Shown here piece by piece: positions 47,369 through 54,932 of a DNA stretch of 64,000 bases. This DNA comes from a virus (Duplodnaviria; Heunggongvirae; Uroviricota; Caudoviricetes). The stretch lies in IMG/VR virus record IMGVR_UViG_2778261631_000002. One strand, given 5' to 3'. Each line of letters starts with the position of its first letter. Position 1 is the stretch's first letter. Position numbers and translations under genes: made by a program. The notes beneath the pieces are model-generated. The model ran no database searches. It was not told the DNA's origin and worked only from the letters and a program-made list of their open reading frames with translations.

Positions 47369-47586
47369 AAAACCCCCTGAACGTCGGAAGAGAAGGGGAG
47401 GTTCCAGTAACTAAGTGAATTGCGCGAGTTAGTTGAAAAACGGGCAGTAAAAATGCAGGGGCCATCAGGCAATTGAGAGCGTGCTTCGTCTTCTGTTGCT
47501 GCGATGACGAAGTGATAGTGGTGTTTTTTGCAGGAATAGAAACGCCAGATGAATTCTTGGCGTGCGCAAGGATTGGCATTAACCAT
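47365..47586 (-). CDS. icd: Icd-like small protein (73 aa) upstream of and coupled to ant
   Basis: 73-codon ORF ending 3 nt before the ant start, the size and position of P1 icd. Confidence 0.55.
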   Translation of the reverse strand: MVNANPCARQEFIWRFYSCKKHHYHFVIAATEDEARSQLPDGPCIFTARFSTNSRNSLSYWNLPFSSDVQGVL

Positions 47587-47624
47587 AGTTACGGCCTCAC
47601 AATCAGGTTTAACAACCTGCTACC

Positions 47625-47715
47625 CGCTGCTAAACAGGTGGCAGGACGTGACGGGGTTAGCAGACTGGCGATTGTGAAACCAGCAGGCCGAAGCCTCCCC
47701 ATCACGCCCCACCAT
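47625..47715 (-). ncRNA. c4: c4-like antisense regulatory RNA region (approximate)
   Basis: Between the operator at 47900 and icd; GTTTAGCAGC occurs twice and its complement CTGCTAAC downstream, consistent with c4 pairing with targets in its own transcript; stem-forming GGTGGGG...CCTGCCACC ends. Confidence 0.4.
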
Positions 47716-47899
47716 AATTTGGGCGTAACGCGGTTTTACGGACACAAAAATACCGCAATATCGGATATCTGCGGCTGTCCGCACAATCATTCAGGCTGCT
47801 AAACCCGGTCGCAGAATTTGCTACGACGGCGAAACTATAAGCCTGAACGATTAAAAGGTCAATATGATGCAAAAAGATAGCATTCGCGACTTAAAAATA

Positions 47900-47916
47900 C
47901 AAATTTATTAGAGCAG
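47900..47916 (-). promoter_or_regulatory. C1 operator of the immI operon
   Basis: Minus strand TCTGCTCTAATAAATTT, 15/17. Confidence 0.55.
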
Positions 47917-48198
47917 ATTAGCGTCGTGCAATAGATATATTATTTGTGATGAAAAATAATGCAGAGGGATATTGTAACTTTAAGATGGATATCAATAGTC
48001 GATACATAAATTAAGTTAGCAATAAACTATTAACTTAAGAAATAATGCAGATGGTGAACTTGTCTCTGACTTTTCAGCTATACACAATAAGTTAGGGATA
48101 GCTTATAAAAAGTTGATTAATTGATATAAGTCAATGGGAGTATTCTTGTTTACTTTCCGTTCTCGTGGTAACTTCTCGCCGGTTTTTGTTTTTCTGGG

Positions 48199-48720
48199 AT
48201 GATTCTTATGTCTAAAAAGTATACTTTATGCGCTCTTGTTGTATCTGCAATTCTTCTTTCTGGGTGTCAATCTAGCGGTGCTGATTATGCTGCCGATGTT
48301 TATGATACCGCTCAATTGAATTCGAAGCAGGAAACAAAGACAGTCAATATTATCTCTGTGCTTCCAGCTAAAGTGAAAGTTGATAATAAAGCTAATAAAG
48401 AAGCGGCACAGACATTTGGTGCGGTACTGGGAGCTGTTGCTGGGGGCGTTGCCGGTTATAATGTTAAAGGCACATCGACACTGGGTGCTGTAGCTGGCGG
48501 TACTGGTGGTGCGGCTCTTGGTGCAGCGGCTGGTTCTTTGGTTAGTGATAAAACAATTGTTGAAGGTGTTTCACTGACTTATAAAGAAGGAACTAAGGTG
48601 TTCACTTCAACTCAAGTTGGTAAAGCATGCCAGTTTACAACGGGGCTTGCTGTGCTTATTTCAACTAAAGATAATGAAACTCGAATTCAGCCAAATGCTA
48701 CTTGTCCAGAAAAGAAATAA
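48199..48720 (+). CDS. Lipoprotein with glycine-zipper region (lipobox LLSGC), about 170 aa
   Basis: Signal peptide plus lipobox; GAVLGAVAGGVAGYNVKGTSTLGAVAGGTGGAALGAAAGS glycine-zipper-like segment. Confidence 0.6.
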   Translation: MILMSKKYTLCALVVSAILLSGCQSSGADYAADVYDTAQLNSKQETKTVNIISVLPAKVKVDNKANKEAAQTFGAVLGAVAGGVAGYNVKGTSTLGAVAGGTGGAALGAAAGSLVSDKTIVEGVSLTYKEGTKVFTSTQVGKACQFTTGLAVLISTKDNETRIQPNATCPEKK

Positions 48721-48723
48721 TTT

Positions 48724-49263
48724 ATGAATAAAATTATTTTATTTCTAATCTTTTCTACGTTTAGTGTAGGCACTGCCTTGGCTAACTCGTTGCAAAGTCA
48801 AATTGCTGCTATTGCTCAAGCGGAAAATGAAGGGCGAGCTAAAGAGCAGCAAGCTGAGGATGCCAGAAAAGAACTTATTCGCCAACAAGCACAAGCTGAA
48901 CGTATTAGAAGAGAAAAAGCAGCATCTGCCGCTGCTGCACGCGAAAAACAGCGTGTTGCTGCAGAAAATGAACGTAGAGCGAAACGAGAAGCCGAGCTAG
49001 CAAATGACAAGAAGCGAGATCAAGCTTATGAGGATGAGCTTCGCAAGCTGCAACTCGAAAGCATGAAACTCGAACTGCAAGCAAAAGCGGCTCGTGTCCA
49101 GCGAGAAAACGATTTTATAGAGCAGGAGTTGAAGGAGAGAGCAGCTAAGACAGATGTAATTCAGTCTGAGGCTGATGCAAATAGAAATATTTCTACAGGA
49201 AGTAAAGATTTACTGCAAAGCGAAGGAAAAGCTAGAGAGAAGAAAGCTAGCAGTTGGTGGTAG
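48724..49263 (+). CDS. Secreted/periplasmic coiled-coil protein rich in Ala/Glu/Arg/Lys (179 aa)
   Basis: N-terminal signal peptide MNKIILFLIFSTFSVGTALA then charged helical repeats (TolA-like composition). Confidence 0.55.
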   Translation: MNKIILFLIFSTFSVGTALANSLQSQIAAIAQAENEGRAKEQQAEDARKELIRQQAQAERIRREKAASAAAAREKQRVAAENERRAKREAELANDKKRDQAYEDELRKLQLESMKLELQAKAARVQRENDFIEQELKERAAKTDVIQSEADANRNISTGSKDLLQSEGKAREKKASSWW

Positions 49264-49288
49264 TAATCACTACGATTGCGAGCATACT

Positions 49289-49312
49289 GTCACAAATGAC
49301 AACTCGTAGAAT
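49289..49312 (+). promoter_or_regulatory. Candidate Lpa-dependent late promoter (GTCACAAATGACA then TAGAAT)
   Basis: Motif shared with sites at 17109 and 36813. Confidence 0.4.
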
Positions 49313-49319
49313 CTGTTAA

Positions 49320-49910
<591 letters not shown>

Positions 49911-51509: not shown

Positions 51510-54500
51510 ATGGAAAGAAAAAACGCCAACATTGACGATGTTATAAGGACAGTTGAAACCGCCAGCGCAAAAGAGCTGGAAGAGCTTGCAGGTATCCGGG
51601 AAGCTGTTGAAGATTTGAAAGGGGGACGCGTTGCAACTGTTGATCCTGTCTCTCGCAGTGTGTCGGCATTAAATCGCACAATCGAAAATTCACGTCCTGA
51701 CTTTGTGACCAATGCGCCATCAGTGGACCCTATTGTTGACGCAATGAAACGGCTTAATTTAGGGGACGTTTCTCGTGTAGTTCAGGAGGGCATTGCTCAA
51801 CAGGAACAGCAGGACAAATCAACTACACCAAAGGGTAAAAAACGACGCAGGAAGGCTATACCAGAGGATATAAAGGCACAACGGACCGAAGCAGCCGAAC
51901 ACGCTCGCGAAATGTTCGATCAAAAAGGCGGTGCGCAAAAAAGCCAAAACCAACGCGATGCGCGTGGTCGTTTTATTGGAAAGTCAGGGAGTAAGGCCGC
52001 AGCGGAAGATGCCCGTGCTGAACGTGCTGAAAAGGCCAGGCGCAAAGAGGATGATGAGCGTCTAAATGTTGAATCAGGTTTATTAAAAAAACTGTCAAAA
52101 GTAGCTGAAGGCATAGGTAACTCTTCAGAGACTCGTGCCGTCGATGCGTTAGGTTATGCCGTTGCTGGTCCATTGTGGGCAGCAGGGAAGGAGCTTGGCG
52201 GGATATCAAAAGAAGTTGGTGGATCGCTTAATGGTGCCAGAAAGTCTATTGCCGATGTGATTCGTGGCAATGACGATAACAGCCGTAGAAAAGGTTTTTT
52301 TAGGCGTAAATCGCAAAATAGTGCCGATGTCGTTCAGGTTAACACCCAAAAACGGACGGTTCAGGAACTTCAGGAGCAGACCAGCGAAATTAAAGAGGGC
52401 AATGACAAGATTCTCAGCGCCCTTGATCAGATAGCCAAAAACACCGGGAAAAAGAAGGGCGGCTTGCTGTCCAAACTATTTAGCCTGTTAGGGAAGGGGG
52501 CCGGTGGCGTCGCGTCGTTGTTAATGGGGCATGGCATGCTGAAAAAAGCTGGAGCACTCGCTTTTGGCGCTCTGGGGGCAAAGAAACTTGTAGGAATGCT
52601 ACGCGGTGGTGGCAAGAAGACTCTCGCCCATGAAGGTGGAGATTTGGCTGCCCGGGCAGCAGGTAAACTTGGATTAAAGGCAGTTGGTAAAGGGGCGTTA
52701 CGCGCAATTCCCCTAGTCGGCACAGTGGCTGGAGGTATTTATGATGCGGTAACCGGTTGGAATGATACAGAAGCGCAACGTCGAGCGTTTGGGCTTAAAT
52801 CAGGACAAGATCCATCATTCCAGCAAAAAGCCGCTTATACGTTAGCCAATGTTCTTGATATGGGGGGACTGGTATCTGGTATTAGCAGCGCCATTGGTGA
52901 GGTTCTCAAATCACTTGGATTTGAGGATATCGGCAATATGTTGCAATCATTTTCGACGGAAAGTATTGCCCAGGCCATTGATAGTGGGATTACCAACTTA
53001 GAAACATATATTTCTAACCTTGGCGACACCATTTCTACCAAGTTCGAAGATTACACAGCAAAGATTGGTGATGCTGTTTCAGCATGGTTTAGCGATACAT
53101 CTAATAAGCTGCTTGAAAAGCTGGATGCCATCAAAGACTTCTTTACTGTTGATAACCTGAAACAGGTTTTCAGTGATGCAATTGATAGTGCAATTGATTT
53201 CATTAAGAACCCAGGGAAACACATTAAAGAGGCGGCTGGTAATATTTGGGATGGGGTTAAAAATTTACCTGGTAAAGCATTAGATGCAGCGGTTGATGCC
53301 GTTAAAAATACCCCTGCGGCAATGATTGTATCAAAAATACCCAATCCGATCGGCGAGGCTAATGCGAAAGAAATCACTCCAGAGTTAAAAGCTCCGGTTA
53401 ATAGCCACCAGGAGACATCTGATTCTAAAACTGAATCCGATGCCAAACAGACTAATATTGTTACCCGCGTGATAAATGCGGCACTGGACACGGCGAAAGA
53501 TAGCAATAAAACAGTTAAAGAAACTGCTAATCAGATTATCAATGCAAATGCCGTAGAAACGGGCAATAGCGCGTTGCAGAAAATTGATAATGCTATTGGA
53601 CAAAATAGCTCGTCATCATCGTCGCTTAATACCACTGGCACCAGGAATGACATTCAGAAAGCAGCGGATACCTACAACAATGGCAACTTGGATGTAAAAG
53701 TCGGAAATCTTGGTGCTGAAGGTAAGGCAAATCTAGATAAGTTGGCACCGTATTTTGCTGAACTAGAGAATAAATATGGCCTTCCAGAAGGCACTCTTTA
53801 CTCGATTGCTGCAACTGAATCAGGAGGGGATCCTAACGCAAAGTCTCCGCTTACAAGATCACCAGATGGAAAGTTAAGTGGTGGCGCACTCGGGATGTTC
53901 CAGTTCACGAGTATTGCTCGTAAAGAGACTGGGATATCGGAACCGGATGCATTTGATCCTGTGAAATCGGCAGAAGCTGCGGCTCTTCTCATGAGCAAGT
54001 ATCTGAAGCAAGCCAATGGAGATTTAAACGAGGCCATAACTGCATATAACGCTGGGTTTGGCACTATTAATAAGTGGAAAAAAGGCACCGGTGACTTATC
54101 GAAAGAAAACCGTGAGTACGCGATCAAGGTCAATACTCATCGTGCTCGCTATTTAGGTGGTGACATCTATACACCTGGAGCAGGAGCACAGGGTGGGGCG
54201 CAATATGGAGTGAGGGGACCACTGCCTGATAACGCTGTTATCGATCAGTCTACTGGCCTGGCGTTTACCCCTGGTGATAGCCCGTTTGAGAAAGGCGGTC
54301 TGGTAGACAAAATAGGTAATGCTGTTGGCGTTAACGATCTGGTCAACAAATTCATGAATGGCCGGGGTATGCGTCGGGAAGTCGTTCAGGGAACGCTCGA
54401 AGAACGTGCACGAGGGAAGGGGACCGCAACAGCAGCTGGCAATGTGTATGTTGATACTCCGATGCCAGTTGAAGAGGCGCGTCCGGTGGCCAGCAACTCA

Positions 54501-54932
54501 AGTTACTTTGACCAACTCGGCGCACAAATGGGGATTGATGGACTATTCGATAAACTCCGCAATTCGCCGGGGATGCGGAAAAATAATGCGCCTGAACCAG
54601 CCTCCACGTCCCAAGTGACGACTGCCACCAACGATTTGCAGCAACCAACCGGTCGTATGCAGATAGACGGGCAGGTTATTAGTGACCTTGGCGGTTCTGG
54701 TGCCAAGCCGACAATGCAGTTGGCTGATAATACCGTTTCACTTGATGGTGAAACGAAGCGGCTGTTTGCGCAGATGACCTCATTGCTTGCCAGGATTGAA
54801 GAGCACACCAAAGACTCGGCGAAAGGCCAGGGAACTGTCGTAAAGGTCAGCACGCCTCAGCCGGGCGTTATGCGCACGGTACCACTGTCAATTGATGATC
54901 CGTTGATGAATGACTACGCGAGAGTTGATTGA
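51510..54932 (+). CDS. sit: Sit: structural injection transglycosylase / tape-measure-like protein (1140 aa)
   Basis: Gly/Ala/Lys-rich helical repeats and a C-terminal soluble lytic transglycosylase domain (...TESGGDP...GMFQF...AYNAG...); the length equals what I recall for P1 Sit. Confidence 0.8.
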   Translation: MERKNANIDDVIRTVETASAKELEELAGIREAVEDLKGGRVATVDPVSRSVSALNRTIENSRPDFVTNAPSVDPIVDAMKRLNLGDVSRVVQEGIAQQEQQDKSTTPKGKKRRRKAIPEDIKAQRTEAAEHAREMFDQKGGAQKSQNQRDARGRFIGKSGSKAAAEDARAERAEKARRKEDDERLNVESGLLKKLSKVAEGIGNSSETRAVDALGYAVAGPLWAAGKELGGISKEVGGSLNGARKSIADVIRGNDDNSRRKGFFRRKSQNSADVVQVNTQKRTVQELQEQTSEIKEGNDKILSALDQIAKNTGKKKGGLLSKLFSLLGKGAGGVASLLMGHGMLKKAGALAFGALGAKKLVGMLRGGGKKTLAHEGGDLAARAAGKLGLKAVGKGALRAIPLVGTVAGGIYDAVTGWNDTEAQRRAFGLKSGQDPSFQQKAAYTLANVLDMGGLVSGISSAIGEVLKSLGFEDIGNMLQSFSTESIAQAIDSGITNLETYISNLGDTISTKFEDYTAKIGDAVSAWFSDTSNKLLEKLDAIKDFFTVDNLKQVFSDAIDSAIDFIKNPGKHIKEAAGNIWDGVKNLPGKALDAAVDAVKNTPAAMIVSKIPNPIGEANAKEITPELKAPVNSHQETSDSKTESDAKQTNIVTRVINAALDTAKDSNKTVKETANQIINANAVETGNSALQKIDNAIGQNSSSSSSLNTTGTRNDIQKAADTYNNGNLDVKVGNLGAEGKANLDKLAPYFAELENKYGLPEGTLYSIAATESGGDPNAKSPLTRSPDGKLSGGALGMFQFTSIARKETGISEPDAFDPVKSAEAAALLMSKYLKQANGDLNEAITAYNAGFGTINKWKKGTGDLSKENREYAIKVNTHRARYLGGDIYTPGAGAQGGAQYGVRGPLPDNAVIDQSTGLAFTPGDSPFEKGGLVDKIGNAVGVNDLVNKFMNGRGMRREVVQGTLEERARGKGTATAAGNVYVDTPMPVEEARPVASNSSYFDQLGAQMGIDGLFDKLRNSPGMRKNNAPEPASTSQVTTATNDLQQPTGRMQIDGQVISDLGGSGAKPTMQLADNTVSLDGETKRLFAQMTSLLARIEEHTKDSAKGQGTVVKVSTPQPGVMRTVPLSIDDPLMNDYARVD

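Follow-up and report, generated by a model that had tools for sequence, protein, structure and literature searches.

The DNA analyzed here, which we refer to as the window, is the whole 64,000-nucleotide (nt) stretch of the IMG/VR virus record IMGVR_UViG_2778261631_000002, a P1-family phage-plasmid of the P7 type. Two adjacent genes on its plus strand, at positions 48199 to 48720 and 48724 to 49263, are separated by a gap of 3 nt. An earlier examination of the letters alone (the sequence-only reading) had located both genes correctly and had described their products as a lipoprotein and a secreted helical protein that might together form an exclusion or envelope module. We find that the two genes form a mobile paralogue of the envelope operon yfgH-yfgI of Escherichia coli, from which they diverged long ago, and the family identity of the two genes is essentially certain. 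This paralogy is a point beyond the sequence-only reading, as are the annotation of both genes in phage P7 and their location in the slot that holds simABC in P1.

The window from 47800 to 49400 is 99.3 to 99.8% identical to P7, SJ46, RCS47, JL22, and phi456, in all of which both genes are 99 to 100% conserved, and one E. coli plasmid is identical (100%) to the window over positions 47500 to 49900. The P7 annotation names the first gene upf50.5 (“outer membrane lipoprotein of unknown function”) and the second upf50.0 (“membrane protein of unknown function”) and gives each product a signal peptide. As the sequence-only reading had noted, their codon usage is richer in A and T than that of the structural genes nearby, a difference that is stronger at the codon level: the G+C content at third codon positions (GC3) is 0.24 and 0.31 for the two genes, compared with 0.42 to 0.53 for pmgC, tub, pmgB, and sit.

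The first open reading frame (ORF), which is yfgH-like, encodes 173 amino acids, or 170 if translation begins at an alternative in-frame start at 48208 that has a GGGA 8 nt upstream. Both starts yield one and the same mature protein, and a related pair found at this location in another plasmid (allele B, described below) is annotated from the second ATG. The protein begins with MSKKYTLCALVVSAILLSGC, which includes an L-S-G-C lipobox with Gln at position +2 (MSKKYTLCALVVSAILLSGC/QSS), and the lipobox Cys is codon 23 (48265 to 48267). On the basis of these features, and of the rule that a residue other than Asp at +2 directs sorting to the outer membrane, the protein is predicted to be exported, lipidated at Cys23, and delivered to the outer membrane.

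A search of 5.8 billion proteins recovered 483 relatives of this lipoprotein, mostly 170 to 172 residues long and named “glycine zipper 2TM” or “SlyB,” and the protein is 67 to 68% identical to YfgH of the E. coli core genome. An alignment of 43 family members contains 33 invariant columns, including the lipobox Cys, glycines of the zipper, and two C-terminal Cys residues, and the window protein keeps all 33. When the family profile was compared with sequences in the PDB, it matched E. coli SlyB (7OJF/7OJG) from end to end (E = 1.3e-9, residues 8–163). Thus, the proposal that this gene encodes a SlyB-like lipoprotein with a glycine zipper is borne out, with the Gly/Ala zipper hairpin located at residues 74 to 112. 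In single-sequence scans with Pfam, the matches to PF05433 (glycine zipper 2TM; 18.2 versus 24.2 bits) and to PF05818 (TraT; 23.1 versus 31 bits, residues 59–145 only) fell below threshold. The AlphaFold2 monomer computed from the 43-sequence alignment has a predicted local distance difference test score (pLDDT) of 53, and given this value the homology to SlyB was drawn from the profile search. In this model a strand is followed by a helical hairpin and then by a beta domain, and the predicted architecture is SlyB/YfgH-like, in which a short beta segment precedes the glycine-zipper helical hairpin and a small beta domain carries the conserved Cys pair.

Several database entries give this gene a different name. 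It is labeled a DNA methyltransferase in the RefSeq records of P7 (NC_050152), SJ46 (NC_031129), RCS47 (NC_042128), and TL-2011b (NC_019445) and in PHROG 1277, and these labels are all that favors such an activity. The protein carries a signal peptide and a lipobox, is homologous to SlyB and YfgH over its full length, and matched no methyltransferase family in the Pfam or NCBIfam scans. We therefore consider this assignment refuted, with a probability close to nil, and flag the RefSeq and PHROG 1277 label as an apparent annotation error that was spread through the PHROG family name.

The second ORF, which is yfgI-like, encodes 179 amino acids with a signal peptide of the AxA type at residues 1 to 20 (MNKIILFLIFSTFSVGTALA/NS). 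It matches the Pfam family PF17358 (DUF5384) at 147.8 bits, compared with a cut-off of 25 (E = 3e-43), over profile positions 4 to 145 of 145. Ala, Glu, Lys, Arg, Gln, and Asp make up 70% of the mature protein, and AlphaFold2 models it as one unbroken helix from residue 3 to 178 (pLDDT 87). The sequence-only reading had called this product TolA-like, which is apt for its composition and helical shape and fails for its ancestry, as TolA families are absent from the Pfam and NCBIfam scans. Solved structures likewise include no relative of this protein. Across DUF5384 relatives, the charged N-terminal half varies in both sequence and length, and the last ~80 residues are conserved. If ~155 residues of the predicted helix each contribute 1.5 Å, then the protein would span ~23 nm, a length comparable to the width of the periplasm. 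This model suggests that the protein is a periplasmic rod or spacer, and this product is almost certain to be the lipoprotein's partner.

A mobile copy of the yfgH-yfgI operon

Of 5426 complete E. coli genomes, 5420 carry the chromosomal operon yfgH-yfgI flanked by yfgF and guaA, and this gene order is kept in Escherichia, Citrobacter, and close relatives. Farther afield, the yfgH-like gene is followed immediately by a DUF5384 ORF in 78 of 80 loci from species representatives that include Enterobacterales, Pasteurellaceae, Pseudomonas, and others, and therefore the two genes constitute a functional unit. The same arrangement is present in all eight genomic contexts that we examined, and the identity matrices of the two genes run in parallel across these contexts.

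Copies on mobile elements are diverse in both sequence and location. Among the diverged mobile copies, lipoprotein identity ranges from 57 to 86%. The closest relative of the window pair resides on an island with an integrase and insertion sequence (IS) elements (86% identity for the lipoprotein and 78% for its partner). Myovirus prophages related to phiP27 carry copies between the tail-fiber/DUF4376 genes and the host junction at three chromosomal sites in E. coli and Salmonella. Another copy adjoins a RepB/Rep3 replication gene on a ~102-kb Salmonella contig (L013). This contig was considered as a known phage-plasmid, and that classification was rejected: megablast matched it to nothing in the phage collection, and among plasmids it gave just a weak match to repB. 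It is described here simply as a RepB-type element. In all these contexts, the two genes have diverged together as pairs.

The mobile copies, with the exception of that on the RepB element, have GC3 values of 0.20 to 0.34, compared with 0.41 and 0.50 for the two genes of the core E. coli operon. This low GC3, together with saturated divergence, indicates that the mobile copies form an old lineage of their own and are not recent captures from E. coli. A search for the donor of this lineage gave no clear source, and the closest copies among species representatives are 71 to 80% identical (Kluyvera, Pantoea, Xenorhabdus). Relative to the diverged mobile copies, the ratio of nonsynonymous to synonymous substitutions (dN/dS) is 0.05 to 0.10 where dS, which exceeds 1, could be estimated. 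The low dN/dS and the conservation of both genes in P7-type phages establish that they are not chance ORFs.

Not every apparent phage copy is genuine. Matches at 67 to 69% identity in IMG/VR contigs classified as viral were considered as further cases of phage carriage and were set aside, as most are the core yfgHI genes at the edges of prophage calls. Approximately 60 such contigs (L038–L099) end in the core E. coli yfgH-yfgI genes (97% identical to the chromosomal protein) and have no guaA beyond them. In many strains a prophage seems to be inserted next to yfgI, such that boundary calls take in the host operon and inflate the apparent carriage of this family by phages. The match in TL-2011b (JQ011317, 41921–42421) probably represents core yfgHI as well, because it is 68.9% identical and is located at the end of the record.

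The sim slot and its alleles

The pair occupies an exchangeable cassette of 1.4 kb (47916–49291), whose limits are defined by homology breakpoints and shared junctions. Homology to P1 and to the phage Ro157c2YLVW ends at 47915 and restarts at 49287 to 49292. The left border is an operator for the C1 repressor (Op51/Oc4, 47901–47917, minus strand), identified by gap-free alignment to the P7 annotation and carrying 2 mismatches to the consensus, and the junction coincides with the core of this operator. The right border is the late promoter LPsit (49293–49312, plus strand), with its −22 box and a TAGAAT −10 element placed by gap-free alignment to the P7 and P1 annotations, and the junction is ACAAATGAC at the start of the promoter. 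This location corresponds to the sim region, which has been described as “variable region 4” of P1-like phage-plasmids (PMC9603915) and whose genes are dispensable for the lytic growth of P1 (PMC10695390).

Four alleles of the slot were recognized. P1 carries simA-simB-simC, and the window carries the yfgHI-like pair (allele A). In the plasmid pMB7206_1, the slot contains a yfgHI-like pair that is 84% and 80% identical to that of the window, together with a DUF559 gene (allele B). Two unrelated ORFs occupy the slot in Ro157c2YLVW and several plasmids. Alignments show that all four alleles have identical junctions, in that they are the same up to 47915 and conservation returns at 49292. Moreover, an N-terminal signal or transmembrane segment is present in every encoded protein, namely SimA, SimB, and SimC, the products of the two Ro157-type ORFs, both yfgHI-like pairs, and the DUF559 protein. 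Synonymous sites are saturated between alleles A and B (dS 1.4–2.7), whereas the surrounding backbone is 95 to 98% identical, and therefore the cassettes have been swapped by recombination rather than having diverged in place.

Conservation at this position among P1 relatives, a point raised by the sequence-only reading, is partial. Allele A is present in 168 of the 628 matching plasmids in PLSDB and on plasmids of 182 of the 5426 complete E. coli genomes, and P1 itself has simABC instead.

The proteins of the other alleles have features of their own. The third gene of allele B (pMB7206_1, L019:2163–3422) encodes a DUF559 protein of 419 amino acids with two N-terminal transmembrane segments and has a GC content of 36%. 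ORF1 of the Ro157-type allele (vB_EcoM-Ro157c2YLVW, L016:2715–3362) encodes an exported protein of 215 amino acids, in which a stretch of 47 residues is 49% identical to residues 937 to 979 of Sit (..GMRxxVQGTLEERARGxGT.., E = 7e-9); a second, weaker match is to Sit residues 1013 to 1051. The sit gene of the window spans 51510 to 54932. Judging from this resemblance, the ORF1 product could be a periplasmic mimic of part of Sit, the injected tape-measure/transglycosylase protein, and could act as an exclusion decoy. Starting from an internal Met (MRKLLLPLLFMAGTVNAASSVKEICTDYTKYLGHVY...), the N-terminal ~40 residues of the protein encoded by the Ro157-type ORF1 recur almost unchanged in SimA of P1 (52 amino acids; L002:5187–5345), and the P1 and Ro157 alleles have ~60 nt in common after the C1 operator. 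Therefore, simA seems to be what remains of a truncated gene, and the sim allele seems to have arisen when an allele of the Ro157 type was partially replaced.

Between the C1 operator and the lipoprotein gene is an AT-rich region of 281 bp (47918–48198, plus strand; 32% GC) that presumably contains the promoter and regulatory sites of the cassette. A 15-nt direct repeat (AAATAATGCAGAGGG and AAATAATGCAGATGG, consensus AAATAATGCAGA(G/T)GG) is located here at 47954 to 47968 and 48040 to 48054, with the copies 86 bp apart. In addition, a noncoding block of ~34 nt (48118–48151, plus strand) that includes the near-palindrome ATTGATATAAGTCAAT at 48120 to 48135 has been kept between alleles A and B despite the saturation of synonymous sites in their coding regions. 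The repeat and the block are possible binding sites for regulators, and the block is a candidate operator or promoter. The same region contains no sigma-E-type motif, no second C1 operator, and no motif resembling the late promoter LPsit.

These observations bear on whether the cassette might be decaying, hitch-hiking DNA that has no current function. Its foreign composition and the fact that no promoter was identified would fit such an origin. However, the ORFs are intact in all carriers, the low dN/dS holds across copies whose synonymous sites are saturated, a noncoding block is kept between the two alleles, and the cassette is found in 168 plasmids. This explanation is hardly credible and, because of the purifying selection, is refuted in practice.

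Downstream of the pair, the RNA corresponding to positions 49264 to 49345 is predicted to fold with a free energy of −24.3 kcal/mol (z = −4.9). The stable hairpin in this segment (49303–49337, plus strand) overlaps the −10 element of LPsit, is invariant in all four alleles, and is followed by a weak U-tract (GUUUC). The left arm is located upstream of the late transcript start expected from the position of the LPsit −10 element, and therefore the hairpin would form fully only in transcripts that read through from the cassette. The structure is thus a candidate insulator or terminator that could shield the tail operon from cassette transcription.

Beyond the hairpin begins the conserved late tail operon pmgC-tub-pmgB-sit, whose first gene, pmgC/tubA (49344–49910, plus strand), is an ORF annotated in both P7 and P1. 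The cassette is directly upstream of this operon and is transcribed in the same direction, which could indicate that its products act in lytic growth or in the virion, for example as a part of the tail or baseplate, as a spanin-like lysis factor, or as a means of holding the outer membrane until lysis. The phi456 record (OR339795) indeed labels the two products “minor tail protein” and “tail tip protein,” and one PHROG profile for an Rz-like spanin gives a weak match (E = 0.038). Nevertheless, the cassette lies upstream of LPsit with the strong hairpin between them, and the window proteins have no similarity to Sit. The PHROG matches to spanin and to the Cor protein are limited to the signal peptide and lipobox region (residues 10–67 and 10–54, respectively), and the tail labels of phi456 were unsupported by any search, such that no homology to a virion structural protein was found. 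The same pair also exists as a chromosomal operon in cells that are not lysogens. P1 and approximately three quarters of P1-like plasmids lack the cassette and nonetheless make virions. This distribution largely refutes a lytic or structural role, which we regard as very unlikely.

On its other side, the cassette faces the immI control region, from which the two genes diverge as the sequence-only reading had recognized. The C4 antisense RNA of the immI operon (47634–47719, minus strand) was located by its match to Rfam RF01695 (69.6 bits versus a gathering score of 45, E = 5.9e-13), and P7 annotates c4 at the matching place. The a1/b1 target sites of this RNA in the leader of the c4-icd-ant operon (47788–47840, minus strand) match RF03163 (54.6 bits versus 46.7). 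The genes icd, ant1/2, kilA, and repL follow on the minus strand. A match to the Salmonella small RNA isrK that is below the Rfam gathering score (47746–47827, minus strand; 43.7 versus 50 bits, E = 1.4e-7) overlaps the a1/b1 leader, which suggests that the two leader regions are related. The 17-nt consensus for the C1 operator, with 3 or fewer mismatches allowed, has 10 matches in the window (at 2285, 11308, 13400, 13449, 17073, 27134, 27145, 30667, 46231, and 47901) compared with 0.35 expected by chance. Such dispersal is typical of the C1 regulon in P1 and P7.

Possible functions of the cassette

What the pair might do for its carrier can be approached through the host homologue. A recent preprint locates YfgH in the outer membrane and reports its induction when LpxC, LptD, or BamA is depleted (bioRxiv 10.64898/2025.12.22.696046). 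In the same study, deletion of yfgH caused sensitivity to SDS/EDTA, increased permeability, and loss of outer-membrane proteins, overexpression of YfgH rescued knock-downs of genes for outer-membrane biogenesis, and the protein was modeled as SlyB-like rings. Furthermore, genetic interactions between yfgH and lptD are aggravating (PMC3219608), and the Salmonella Typhi orthologues, srgIL, are under the control of SdiA and acyl-homoserine lactones (AHL) (PMC11619404).

We propose that the pair is a lysogenic-conversion module that would strengthen the outer membrane in the manner of YfgH and YfgI, a proposal to which we give an even chance of being correct. The proposal transfers function from the host homologue, and carriage of the pair at classic positions for accessory genes fits with it. 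The cassette would be transcribed in the lysogen from its own AT-rich, regulated promoter, and the lipoprotein would assemble in the outer membrane as host YfgH and SlyB do. The lysogen might then gain an additional or differently regulated capacity to stabilize this membrane, which would raise its tolerance to envelope stress. As a side effect, a tighter or remodeled outer membrane might also impede infecting phages. The low GC3 of the genes, their varied mobile homes, their patchy carriage, and their residence in a slot that is dispensable for lytic growth in P1 are together typical of moron-like accessory genes. In addition, phi456, which carries the cassette at 99.8% identity, is a prophage whose curing lowers survival under acid and oxidative stress and in macrophages (PMC10967188), an effect of the whole prophage that is not specific to any gene.

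Several points weigh against this proposal. The host already has yfgHI, such that the phage copy would be a second one that is 67% identical. The only phenotype reported for yfgI is the sensitivity of a mutant to nalidixic acid (PMC3536626). Matches to sigma-70-like promoters in the region upstream of the cassette are weak and not above chance, and none is convincing. The assembly of the lipoprotein into rings is put forward from its homology to SlyB and from the YfgH preprint, given that the AlphaFold2 monomer has a pLDDT of only 53. Finally, the other occupants of the slot, namely the Sim proteins and the Ro157-type ORF1 product with its Sit-like segment, point to exclusion and not to general robustness.

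Indeed, the cassette could instead be dedicated to superinfection exclusion as the functional counterpart of P1 simABC, an alternative that we view as possible but somewhat unlikely. Under this scheme, a ring-forming lipoprotein and a periplasmic rod would stop an infecting phage at the adsorption step or later, either by sequestering outer-membrane proteins or patches of lipopolysaccharide (LPS) or by obstructing the Sit and tail-tube machinery as it crosses the periplasm, much as the plasmid lipoprotein TraT excludes conjugation. The slot, orientation, and junctions are those of simABC, the proteins of all slot alleles carry a signal or transmembrane segment, and one Ro157-type protein contains the 47-residue Sit-like stretch. 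The predicted length of the DUF5384 helix, near the width of the periplasm, would also suit a barrier of this kind. Moreover, alignment of the lipoprotein family with F TraT by hhalign gives a probability of 89.8% (E = 1.8e-6) in a region that spans the zipper hairpin and the subsequent strands, and TraT is a decameric ring of outer-membrane lipoproteins that plasmids have co-opted several times from chromosomes (PMC11733297).

However, neither protein resembles the Sim proteins (best BLASTP E = 0.2), and no PADLOC family was matched by either at E values up to 1. The TraT match is partial and falls below the Pfam gathering score. E. coli, which has the core yfgHI operon, nonetheless remains a good host to both P1 and P7, and the genes of the cassette are under strong purifying selection with no sign of an arms race. 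The role described for YfgH by experiment is stabilization of the outer membrane, and variable phage slots often hold unrelated cargo. Thus, the module suggested by the sequence-only reading stands on its envelope side, with a YfgH/SlyB homologue, an exported DUF5384 protein, and a conserved operon, and its exclusion side is plausible. Conversion and exclusion are not mutually exclusive.

A broader form of the exclusion hypothesis holds that the sim slot as a whole is an allelic superinfection-exclusion locus, in which the yfgHI-like cassette would be a working allele that acts as a barrier to the delivery of phage DNA. We judge this form to be distinctly unlikely. If it were true, then the ring lipoproteins of the SlyB, YfgH, and TraT type would represent a general “entry-exclusion” fold of phages and plasmids, and host yfgHI would add to innate phage resistance.

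That the two genes are annotated in P7, that the host family member YfgH has just been characterized, and that the sim region is variable were already known. The identification of the pair as yfgHI, the definition of the exact cassette with four alleles of exported proteins, and the recurrence of the pair in unrelated temperate elements are what this analysis adds. P1-like phage-plasmids, which spread resistance genes, are frequent in E. coli and Salmonella, and roughly a quarter of the P1-like plasmids in PLSDB carry allele A in place of sim. If the cassette does strengthen the outer membrane, then it would be a fitness or virulence trait delivered by a phage, which would fit with the stress and colonization defects that follow the curing of phi456 (PMC10967188). 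If it serves exclusion, it would link the recently described membrane-nanodomain lipoproteins SlyB and YfgH to phage defense and would offer a handle on exclusion of the Sim type. In either case, the slot presents a natural experiment, with four unrelated cassettes of exported proteins placed between identical junctions.

Comparison with known systems

Small outer-membrane lipoproteins are encoded by several prophages, including Cor of phi80 and N15, Llp of T5, and Bor of lambda, typically near tail-fiber genes or immunity regions, and Cor and Llp each act on one receptor, FhuA. The copies of the pair in phiP27-like prophages occupy comparable positions. In contrast, the proteins share no homology with these factors, and the PHROG match to Cor (E = 0.022) covers residues 10 to 54, which is the signal peptide region only. 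Comparison with P1 simABC yields a similar division. Both cassettes fill the same slot from Oc4/Op51 to LPsit, are transcribed away from c4, and consist of AT-rich genes with exported products, whereas simABC has three genes rather than two, includes no lipoprotein, and has no detectable sequence similarity to the pair.

TraT, which provides surface exclusion and complement resistance for IncF plasmids (PDB 9FS5, 9E2V), is likewise an outer-membrane lipoprotein with a Gly/Ala-rich helical hairpin, builds rings, and belongs to a chromosomal family that mobile elements have captured repeatedly. However, TraT is larger (243 amino acids), has a large extracellular ring domain, and has no YfgI-like partner, and hhalign aligns only 73 of 236 TraT residues, which correspond to the hairpin and two strands. 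A distant relationship between the two hairpins is possible, and the sequence matches place the lipoprotein outside the TraT family proper.

SlyB is an outer-membrane lipoprotein, regulated by PhoPQ, that forms rings around nanodomains of lipid and outer-membrane proteins. It has the same layout of lipoprotein anchor, zipper hairpin, and beta domain as the window protein, and the relationship is distant, at the level of a family rather than of orthologues. To our knowledge, slyB is not accompanied by a gene for a DUF5384 partner. Suppressor genetics also separate YfgH, which is connected with clsA, from SlyB, which is connected with the Mla pathway (bioRxiv 10.64898/2025.12.22.696046).

The closest counterpart is therefore the E. 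coli yfgH-yfgI operon itself, which has the same genes in the same order and with the same spacing and encodes proteins of 172 and 179 amino acids, compared with 170 to 173 and 179 in the window. The two pairs have in common the lipobox, the glycine zipper, the Cys pair, and the C-terminal DUF5384 region, and the lipoproteins are 67% identical and the partner proteins 48%. They differ in that the pair described here resides on a phage-plasmid in the sim slot rather than between yfgF and guaA, has an unrelated upstream regulatory region, and belongs to a separate lineage of low GC3 (0.24 and 0.31 versus 0.41 and 0.50) whose synonymous sites are saturated relative to those of the chromosomal genes.

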